From: a virus
Lineage: Duplodnaviria > Caudoviricetes
Length of the DNA: 64,000 nt
Virus record (IMG/VR): IMGVR_UViG_3300007512_001664
Span: 32,001 to 96,000 of that record
Strand: one strand, 5' to 3'
The notes beneath the pieces were generated by a model. The model had not been told where the DNA came from. It searched no databases and saw nothing but the letters and a program-made list of their open reading frames with translations. Positions within the stretch are counted from its first letter, which is position 1. Each line of letters starts with the position of its first letter. Both the position numbers and the translations under genes were made by a program. Below are positions 31,416-33,401 of the stretch, one piece after another.

Positions 31416-32396
31416 CTACCATTGGTCATTCCAATACCATCCCCATGAATCTCTTCTGCCGTAACGGACATACGCATCATATGAGCCATCATGTCCTGTA
31501 TTCCATTTGCGCATTTGTCTTGACAGTCCATGAACCCACGGGAACCATGTATATTTCTGAGCTTTGAAGTTTTCTATTTTGGTGGTGGACCTATCTTTTA
31601 GCCATTTTATGTCTACGCTGCCATATGCCCTTCTTATTCCATACTTGAAATTAGAACCATCAATGTAATATTTACCTTGCGCATTTTTTGTTCGCTCGTC
31701 CAGCCAACGCTTTGTCTCAACATGACCATCTGCGAAAGCTAATGCTGTTCCATCAATGTGATAATTACCTGGGACGTCCATGTCGTATATTTTATGGGTA
31801 GGGGCACCCTCGTTCATAACCACCCGAAAACAACCAGCGTTTATGAACTCAAATGGCATTTCTATAAAAGTAAAAATATTAGATGGATCTTCTATATCTT
31901 GTTGTTTGTGGTACACTTTCCATTCTTTATCATCTTCCACTGGCCAACCAGCCCATCCTCCTACGTGAATGTTTACGCTATAGCTCCTATGCCGGGGGAA
32001 GATCTGTCTTAACTCACCGGCCTTGTTTGTTATTCTGAGCATATCCTTATCTGCTGGGCATTTAAATACCCCAACAGAATGACCCACGTAAGGATAAAGG
32101 GGAGTCTTTTTCAGAAACTGATCTTTATTTCCATATTTAGAGATATTTAAACTACCGGGTGCCCATGTATACTTAGAACATCTCTCATACTTCCAAGAAC
32201 TTGAATATAATATTTTGTCACCGTGGTCATCGCTAAAGGTCATGTGAGCCATTTGTAGTTGTTTTTGATTACTAATGCAGGTCGCTCGTTGACTGATAGA
32301 TTTTGCCTTATTAACTGCTGGTAACAGGAGCGCTGCTAGAAGTGCGATAATAGCAATAACCACTAGTAACTCAATTAGAGTAAATCCTTTTCTCAT
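31416..32396 (-). CDS. prepilin-type N-terminal cleavage/methylation protein with H-X9-DG motif
   Basis: [27 protein letters not shown]; CISNQKQL; FKCPAD; RSYSVN; [15 protein letters not shown]. Confidence 0.92.
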
Positions 32397-33385
32397 CGAT
32401 AAGGGTTCCATGTTGGATGGCTACCCCAGCTATCGTTCCAATACCAGCCCCATGAATCATACATACCTCCATCTTTTTCTCGTAGATTCCAGTCCCTATT
32501 GTATCGACCTATGCCTCCCATAACACCATACCAGCGATGATTGTTAGGATCTGGTATGATCGCTCTTTCTCTTAACCAAGCTAAGTCTCTATTATTAGGA
32601 CTGATTATCTTATCTTGATTGGTTGTTGGGTTCATTGCATCAGCTGATATATTTATTGTATCCTCTTCTAGCCATCGCTTAAACTCGACATGAGCATCAA
32701 CAAATGAAACCACTGATCCATTATTGTGATAAACACCTGGCCAATCTTGAGAGAAGAAGCTCTCACCTCCTTTGAGAGTTGGTGCTACTCTAAAGTTACC
32801 AGCATTAATTGACTGAGCTGGCATTTCAATAAAAGTAAACAACTCACTAGGGCTGTATACGTCGTCATAGGTGTGATGAACTTTAAATTGTGTATCTGAC
32901 AACCATGGCCAACCTGACCAACCACCGACAAATAGGTTTACACTATAAGAACGAGGCCTATTAACAATTTCAGGTTTAAGTGTACTAGAAATTGGTCCTG
33001 GTATACGAACAGTTGACTTATCACCTGGGCAATGATATATTCCCATACCAGCGTATGGTTTTAAAGGTGAAAAGAAAAGAGGTCGGTCGCTCTGTCCCCA
33101 TGCTCCATTGCCGCTCATACTGTCAGCGACCCATGCCCACATTCCAGTAGGTTCACCTGCCCAAGCTGATGCATAAGGAAATCTATCTTCATGATCGGCT
33201 GCAAATTCAGCGAACGCGAGATTAAGCTGTCGTTGGTTATTTATGCAAGCGGCCTGCCACCCGGTTTGTTTAGCAGAGCCTAGAGCTGGTAACAATAACG
33301 CAGCTAAAATTGCTATTATCGCTATTACTACCAGTAGTTCAATAAGTGTGAACCCCCTGGTTGCTTTCGCCGCAGGCGGGGCCAT
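32393..33385 (-). CDS. prepilin-type N-terminal cleavage/methylation protein (H-X9-DA variant)
   Basis: [27 protein letters not shown]; CINNQRQL; YHCPGD; RSYSVN; [15 protein letters not shown]. Confidence 0.92.
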
Positions 33386-33393
33386 ATTATAAG

Positions 33394-33401
33394 TATTTAT
33401 A
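33394..33401 (-). promoter_or_regulatory. T4 gp55-type late promoter of the prepilin operon
   Basis: Reverse complement TATAAATA, 8 nt before the ATG at 33385. Confidence 0.7.

Follow-up and report, generated by a model that had tools for sequence, protein, structure and literature searches.

A tandem pair of prepilin-type genes in a marine phage

The window analysed here is a 64,000-nucleotide stretch of a virus record from IMG/VR (IMGVR_UViG_3300007512_001664; bases 32001-96000 of 200,819 bp). On its minus strand, positions 31416-33385 are taken up by two open reading frames (ORFs), gA and gB, delimited by ORF calls and translation. Both encode prepilin-type proteins that end in a tryptophan-rich tail, and they form a conserved, phage-specific branch of a known, uncharacterised prepilin family, akin to host-derived envelope morons and pilin-like phage genes. 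The features of the pair, in window coordinates, are the following:

32396-33385, minus strand (stop codon 32393-32395): gA, coding sequence of a prepilin-type, DUF1559-like protein of 330 amino acids (ORF, PF07963, AlphaFold2 model and orthologs)
31419-32396, minus strand (31416-32396 with the stop codon): gB, a gA paralog of 326 amino acids counted from MRKGF (ORF, BLASTP and PF07963)
33290-33364, minus strand: class III signal and N-terminal helix of gA (residues 8-32; junction G11/F12, with E16 as Glu+5)
32322-32393, minus strand: class III signal and N-terminal helix of gB (residues 2-25; profile matches and ortholog conservation)
32690-32728, minus strand: H-X9-D-A-H motif of gA (H220, D230 and H232, invariant in 99 sequences)
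31722-31760, minus strand: H-X9-D-G-H motif of gB (translation and ortholog alignment)
32396-32560, minus strand: Trp-rich C-terminal tail of gA (residues ~276-330; DSWGWYWND core at 32432-32458)
31419-31583, minus strand: Trp-rich C-terminal tail of gB (residues ~272-326; DSWGWYWND core at 31425-31451)
33394-33401, minus strand: TATAAATA, 8 nucleotides upstream of the gA ATG, belonging to a genome-wide TAAATA motif

The genes overlap by ATGA at 32393-32396, where the ATG of gB (32396-32394) lies on the TGA of gA (32395-32393), as the original prediction, made from the letters alone, had described. An in-frame ATG at 32411 provides an alternative start for gB, five residues longer. BLASTP aligns the two proteins over their full length at 43% identity (E = 2e-68). 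Both score above the curated cut-offs of PF07963 (32.2 bits for gA and 30.2 for gB; cut-off 21.2) and TIGR02532 (32.0 and 32.3 bits; cut-off 16.3), which bears out the claim of two tandem prepilin-type genes with a class III signal. In the translations, each N terminus has a short basic leader, Gly or Ala at -1, Phe+1, Glu+5 and approximately 20 hydrophobic residues, and the leader and these three positions are preserved across all phage orthologs.

All of the body motifs originally listed are found in the translations: C..N..Q, CPGD, SYSVN and H-X9-DA-H in gA, and C..N..Q, CPAD, SYSVN and H-X9-DG-H in gB. The DA form belongs to gA and its closest relatives and the DG form to gB, while the His, the Asp and the following His are invariant. 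Every column that is invariant over a 99-sequence alignment is present in both proteins, namely the N-terminal helix including Glu+5 (F12, E16 and L17-L18), two Cys, CPxD, H220, D230, H232 and two Trp. Matches to the profiles of the wider family are weaker: gA scores 14.2 bits with TIGR04294 (H-X9-DG domain; cut-off 19), among whose matches gB does not appear, and 13.3-13.7 bits with PF07596 (DUF1559; gathering cut-off 23.3), over the N-terminal part of the model only. The PF07596 profile has no match for gB. The GspG equivalog TIGR01710 gives 27.8 and 30.9 bits over the N-terminal 55 residues only, against a full-length cut-off of 88.85.

Both tails carry the identical DSWGWYWND core that had been reported for them, and this core is conserved in approximately 50 orthologs covering the gA and gB types, which goes beyond chance. 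Used as a query by itself, the tail retrieves phage-clade proteins only.

Integrity of the phage record

The record has direct terminal repeats, is rated 100% complete and encodes a T4-type major capsid protein (PF07068, E = 5e-90), a large terminase, a baseplate wedge protein and a ribonucleotide reductase; it is a complete ~200-kb T4-like marine phage and no chimera. Contigs from the best-holding run bridge both junctions of the gene pair with zero differences (29608-31563 and 32945-33996), and the stretch is present in seawater and marine metagenomes from 11 studies. A gA ortholog (≥60% identity) occurs in ~60 of the 80 IMG/VR loci retained from 269 confirmed relatives, and the same A-B pair lies on a 333-kb ENA contig together with rIIB and a DNA polymerase III alpha-subunit gene. 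The G+C content at third codon positions is phage-like in the two genes (0.32 and 0.36). Chimerism with host DNA at the two junctions, a danger that the original prediction had raised, is ruled out by the completeness of the record, the independent phage loci and the mismatch-free bridging contigs, and the genes are phage-encoded.

A host-derived lineage that lengthened its tail

The best matches of gA fall into four tiers. The first consists of gA orthologs (60-92% identity) and the second of gB orthologs (P0042-P0057). The third comprises proteins of 42-47% identity with a shorter aromatic tail that ends in a WG(Y/F)W core, and the fourth many Verrucomicrobiota proteins of 35-40% identity that are tail-less, ending soon past a conserved WLQERATR helix. 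The third tier is cellular: its genes have alanine racemase, purD, uvrA, shikimate dehydrogenase and sulfatase genes as neighbours, its contig has a G+C content of 42% versus 34% in the phage, and its cluster (P0079) has one named member, the Limisphaerales protein MFL2909954.1 from a metagenome-assembled genome.

A maximum-likelihood tree of 58 rows, from which five long-branch rows had been omitted, groups every phage sequence in a single clade (support 99/96), with the tail-bearing cellular proteins as sister (88/80) and the tail-less ones outside (100/100). The gA/gB lineage descends from an uncharacterised envelope-protein family of Verrucomicrobia. Because tail-bearing cellular sequences are sister to the phage clade and tail-less ones fall outside it, the aromatic tail is older than the capture, and the phage lineage added ~20 residues and fixed the SWGW(Y/F)WN core. 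The notion of a tail added by the phage therefore holds in part: the tail is lengthened in phages but not purely phage, having a homologous, shorter WG(Y/F)W counterpart in the nearest cellular subfamily, while the tail-less cellular homologs have no aromatic tail at all.

The cellular relatives of the third tier also occur as a tandem pair, and co-capture of that pair was rejected: trees constrained to join gB to the cellular partner type, or gA to the other cellular one, fail approximately unbiased (AU) tests (p = 2e-5 and 5e-4). The cellular and phage pairs are independent duplications. In the more divergent phages (gA at 60-79% identity) gA stands by itself even with 6 kb of sequence on either side, which fits an order in which gA came first and gB arose later, by duplication within phages.

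The family is greatly expanded in Verrucomicrobiota, as stated in the original prediction, with 11-21 close paralogs in each of four marine genomes; DUF1559-type candidates number up to hundreds per genome in sampled genomes. A pattern scan of GTDB returned, among the matches listed, only tail-less relatives of ≤38% identity. Across 401 sampled Verrucomicrobiota genomes, the phage capsid protein, used to look for an infected-cell host link, had no match, and no P0079-like tail-bearing copy was found at E ≤1e-75 among the five best candidates scored per genome.

Tail-less members of the family were also seen in three other large T4-like viral records that carry a gp23-type capsid gene, one of 354 kb with a completeness rating of 100% and two of 139 kb and 105 kb, and on a putative viral contig of 42 kb (L148):

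5995-6843 of L146: tail-less DUF1559-type prepilin (record with a gp23-type capsid gene)
5986-6831 of L150: tail-less DUF1559-type prepilin (record with a gp23-type capsid gene)
2876-6819 of L148: three tail-less DUF1559-type prepilin genes

Since these are nearer to different cellular paralogs (up to 58% identity) than to gA, they appear to be separate captures. Repeated independent capture by T4-like large viral contigs points to a general benefit.

Selection and cassette exchange

Pairwise ratios of nonsynonymous to synonymous substitution rates (dN/dS) against orthologs are 0.01-0.14, and saturation of synonymous sites is frequent even between proteins of 85-91% identity. Selection is accordingly strongly purifying, and the divergence is old. 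The locus is exchanged between phages as a unit:

31417-33510, no strand assigned: exchangeable cassette, over which the window departs from the near-identical phage L126 (IMGVR_UViG_3300030419_006158, 5990-7260)

The flanking BLAST blocks of L126 are 93-95% identical to the window in DNA, with the same flanking gene order. The 100-nucleotide windows adjoining the cassette (~34000 to 33510) are 93-100% identical, with some farther flank windows at 82-91%. Identity then falls at ~33510 to 51-81% across gA and resumes at ~31420; gA of L126 is 73% identical in protein and gB is absent. Contigs of other populations stop at 31417 and 31400. Across phages the cassette occurs as A only, A-B or B-A, the ankyrin-cyclase gene (described below) sometimes lies directly after the pair, and other small genes are inserted. 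Taken together, these alignments identify the pilin locus as a recombination hotspot, with sharp breakpoints around the cassette.

A TAAATA motif upstream of gA

The sequence TATAAATA, originally taken for a late promoter, stands 8 nucleotides before the gA ATG. As an exact 8-mer it shows no enrichment in the window (16 copies versus 13 expected); genome-wide, 10 of its 51 copies lie 1-11 nucleotides before the ATG of an ORF of at least 60 amino acids. The shorter TAAATA is seven-fold enriched upstream of genes, with 44 occurrences 5-9 nucleotides before an ATG, counted over 217 greedily called ORFs, and as a motif it is real and constrained in position. Its fuller form is (T/A)TAAATA(A/T)TT, often with no Shine-Dalgarno sequence between motif and ATG; examples in the window lie at 577-584, 26981-26988, 27865-27872, 33394-33401 and 33990-33997. 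Such an arrangement suggests mRNAs with little or no leader, or else one signal that serves for promotion and initiation at once.

The label 'late', which in T4 terms would imply use by a gp55-type late sigma factor and confinement to late genes, is unsupported, because motifs of the same class precede a ribonucleotide reductase gene as well as the baseplate wedge gene, and the major capsid gene instead has TATAAATG ~21 nucleotides upstream, followed by AAAGGA. No such motif precedes gB, which is presumably translated together with gA.

Predicted structure and comparison with known systems

With 99 sequences as input, AlphaFold2 yields a model of gA with a mean predicted local distance difference test score (pLDDT) of 90.5 and a predicted template modelling score (pTM) of 0.87. 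It consists of a 50-residue N-terminal helix, a mixed beta body and a tail folded as short beta-hairpins, with a block pLDDT of 92-95 over residues 271-320. Against AlphaFold DB clusters the best matches are DUF1559 and prepilin proteins (E = 7.7e-16, TM score 0.62; both sides being predictions), and the globular body is accordingly predicted to share the DUF1559 fold. Foldseek against the PDB matched the N-terminal helix only, and an exhaustive alignment to 48,161 PDB representatives placed pilins or pseudopilins in all of the top 22 rows, weakly (Z ≤4.5). A complex prediction for the soluble parts of gA and gB scored 0.00, which is evidence neither way.

The claim that no phage counterpart has been described stands up to the searches we made. 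Foldseek against the viral proteins of BFVD gave nothing at E ≤0.001, tblastn of gA against 50,697 isolate-phage records (INPHARED) gave no match, and a literature search found no paper on phage-encoded DUF1559 or H-X9-DG proteins. The phage 'pilin' morons of PHROGs (phrog_3433 and related families) match the first 30-60 residues only; they share with gA and gB a phage-borne, prepilin-type N terminus and are filed under moron/host takeover, but they are short (59-187 positions) and have neither the DUF1559 body nor the tail.

Among cellular proteins, the tail-bearing Limisphaerales subfamily (P0079 cluster with MFL2909954.1, and a 321-aa tandem partner) is closest. It resembles the phage pair in its prepilin domain, in C..N..Q, CPxD, SYS(M/V)N and H-X9-DG-H, in its homologous C-terminal aromatic tail and in its tandem arrangement, and it is the sister clade. 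It differs in its identity to the phage proteins of just 42-47%, in a tail ~20 residues shorter, in a WG(Y/F)W rather than SWGW(Y/F)WN core, and in lying within a GDSL-hydrolase operon, unlike the phage genes. The wider DUF1559 (PF07596, SBP_bac_10)/H-X9-DG (TIGR04294) proteins of Planctomycetota, Verrucomicrobiota and Lentisphaerota have the same architecture and predicted fold as gA, whereas gA stays below the cut-offs of both curated models, has DA for DG and is virus-encoded. Type IV pilins and type II secretion pseudopilins (PilA, GspG-K) have in common with gA and gB the class III signal, Phe+1, Glu+5 and a long N-terminal helix on a beta-sheet. In contrast, the structural match is weak, as given above, the gA/gB body is twice the size of a major pilin, and the equivalog models match the N terminus only, far under their cut-offs.

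Dependence on the host and the cellular operon

A profile search of the phage found neither a peptidase A24 (PF01478) nor other prepilin-type proteins. If gA and gB are processed and assembled, the host must supply the machinery, and we infer that the host prepilin peptidase (PilD) and filament apparatus would act on them; of three marine Verrucomicrobiota genomes searched, two encode peptidase A24.

In the nearest cellular subfamily, a conserved operon places a GDSL/SGNH hydrolase gene ahead of two tail-bearing pilin-like genes (~302 and ~320 aa), after which come, in two of three lineages, an alpha/beta-hydrolase esterase gene and a 97-aa ORF. This context suggests polymer handling. The operon was located on three marine Verrucomicrobiota-type contigs:

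6725-11031 of L005: cellular GDSL/pilin operon
4726-9012 of L183: cellular GDSL/pilin operon
2288-5779 of L185: cellular GDSL/pilin operon

A possible role in host filaments

Our preferred interpretation, held tentatively, is that gA and gB are working pseudopilin-like envelope proteins that are fed into the host's filament machinery and alter what the fibres of the infected cell bind. The proteins would be made in the infected cell, placed in the inner membrane by the class III signal, probably trimmed by PilD, and would then enter a host type IV filament or a type II secretion-like (pseudopilus) machinery. Once assembled, they would display the globular body and the lengthened Trp-rich module, so that the surface fibres gain a binding specificity chosen by the phage. 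Because the assembly helix and the family-invariant residues are intact and dN/dS is very low, we favour functional over crippled subunits; a jamming of the host apparatus, as the original prediction had proposed, is the less likely on the same grounds.

Cyanophages offer a parallel: pstS, a host-derived gene for a periplasmic binding protein, is expressed by T4-like marine phage and sustains the infected cell. PstS has a known ligand and transporter, and its phage copies are close to host copies. We favour a benefit of gA and gB analogous to that of such host-derived binding-protein genes; these too are host-derived envelope genes, although the gA/gB clade is deeply separated from hosts. The use we favour is capture of, or adhesion to, a glycan-like polymer, which would aid the long infection of a 200-kb phage, because the nearest cellular subfamily sits in a GDSL/SGNH and esterase operon and because dextran binding by pili-like fibres has been described in Planctomycetes (PMC5394234). 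A more specific and more doubtful version is that a widespread marine T4-like jumbo phage clade domesticated a host pseudopilin and long kept it as an exchangeable one- or two-gene cassette whose products give host type IV fibres a phage-chosen specificity; the phage-lengthened Trp-rich module would confer that specificity and would serve either exclusion or capture.

Several observations weigh against a binding role in host fibres. The tails alone match no Pfam family, including no carbohydrate-binding family. Among 5.8 billion clusters no cellular sequence falls inside the phage clade, unlike classical auxiliary genes, which keep exchanging with hosts. A cassette swap between near-identical phages is a pattern more typical of exclusion or host-range modules. 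gA was not found in any listed RNA run, the DUF1559/H-X9-DG family is itself uncharacterised by experiment, and the assignment of the phage host to Verrucomicrobiota is probable rather than observed.

The strongest competitor, which we consider possible if somewhat unlikely, is superinfection exclusion or receptor masking. Here the phage pilins would enter or cap those fibres or secretion pseudopili of the host that serve related phages as receptors, changing or hiding the receptor so that the infected cell or its debris no longer adsorbs competitors or progeny. An old, monophyletic phage clade closed to host sequences speaks for this account, and replacement of the cassette as a unit between phages with mostly 93-100% identical flanks, in A only, A-B and B-A forms, is as expected of modules under frequency-dependent selection. 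The neighbours of the pair, in a small minus-strand island, are of host-manipulation type: one has a weak PAS match below the cut-off, one is a membrane protein, and a third combines ankyrin repeats with a weak match to a cyclase domain. It is known that phages disable type IV filaments to shut out competitors, the model being Aqs1 of DMS3 (PMC13436744), a phage protein that alters host filament function; however, Aqs1 is small and cytoplasmic, binds the PilB ATPase, is no filament subunit and has no homology to gA or gB, and the known phage filament blockers are in general small PilB/PilC inhibitors without pilin homologs among them. Simple jamming, moreover, needs neither the full set of invariant residues nor so low a dN/dS, the divergence of alleles is old (with saturated synonymous sites) and not driven by positive selection, and PADLOC gives no match for gA or gB.

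An inner-membrane-anchored periplasmic protein that never enters a filament, for example one that binds cell wall or outer-membrane components and stabilises the envelope or times lysis, is unlikely. The size of ~330 aa, much larger than major pilins, and an upstream 73-aa neighbour with a C-terminal membrane segment would suit it, and no DUF1559 protein is known to polymerise. On the other hand, an invariant Glu+5 and whole assembly helix would be costly without assembly, and no lysis genes were recognised nearby. Still less probable is a role in the virion or in adsorption, with the proteins decorating the particle. Glycans could be bound by the aromatic tail, but a class III signal with a strongly hydrophobic helix directs the protein to the inner membrane, both genes lie apart from the structural genes that were recognised, and no similarity to viral structural proteins was found in BFVD or PHROGs. 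Finally, we give almost no credence to host DNA mis-assembled into the phage or a functionless, decaying recent insert, for which only the G+C content of gA (43.6% versus a window mean of 35.8%) speaks, against the complete record with its terminal repeats, the cleanly bridged junctions, the same site being filled in independent assemblies, phage-like third codon positions, low dN/dS and a nearest cellular homolog no closer than 42-47% identity.

DUF1559/H-X9-DG prepilins are among the largest protein expansions of Planctomycetota and Verrucomicrobiota, with no established function. The phage version offers a tractable entry to them: it is compact and strongly conserved, consists of two genes free of background from paralogs, is clearly expected to be processed by PilD and ends in a distinctive binding-type tail. 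It also marks a probable link to Verrucomicrobiota hosts for a group of marine jumbo phages that is abundant and uncultured. Were assembly confirmed, host filaments would be manipulated by supplying subunits, unlike the small-inhibitor mechanisms. The more specific version, in which a host pseudopilin was domesticated, would if true amount to subunit-level takeover of a host surface organelle and would give a first experimental handle on a very large family.

Neighbouring genes and other observations

Two proteins are encoded directly upstream of gA, at 33427-33982 (minus strand). One, of 113 aa, matches a PAS domain weakly, under the cut-off; the other is the 73-aa protein, which is coiled in its N-terminal part and has a membrane segment at its C terminus. 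In L126 the two are conserved at 88-99%, and they lie immediately outside the exchanged stretch. Downstream of the pair, at 28846-30390 (minus strand), an ankyrin-repeat protein has a weak match to a class III cyclase domain (Pfam, 16.5 bits, under the cut-off of 21.9). At least seven phage loci (including L087, L090, L102, L103, L126 and L142) have this ankyrin-cyclase gene beside the pilin cassette or close to it; a functional link between the two through nucleotide signalling and filament control is speculation.

A third, short prepilin-type ORF (~70-100 aa readable) stands beside the pair at 7690-8000 of L003 and 8220-8420 of L102. Its N terminus begins MKK(A/G) and the C..N motif is kept; it may represent a small pilin, or else a fragment left behind when cassettes recombined. 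In four other loci (L091, L093, L095 and L108), an ORF of ~120 aa between gA and gB resembles by eye an S-adenosylmethionine decarboxylase-like proenzyme and is a candidate for that function.

Two tRNAs aside, Rfam gave no riboswitch or other family in the window or near the cellular operons. Elsewhere in the window, 35683-36495 (plus strand) matches a family like the alpha subunit of haem-dependent oxidative N-demethylase (PF11927, E = 1.7e-39) and is a candidate for an unusual auxiliary gene.

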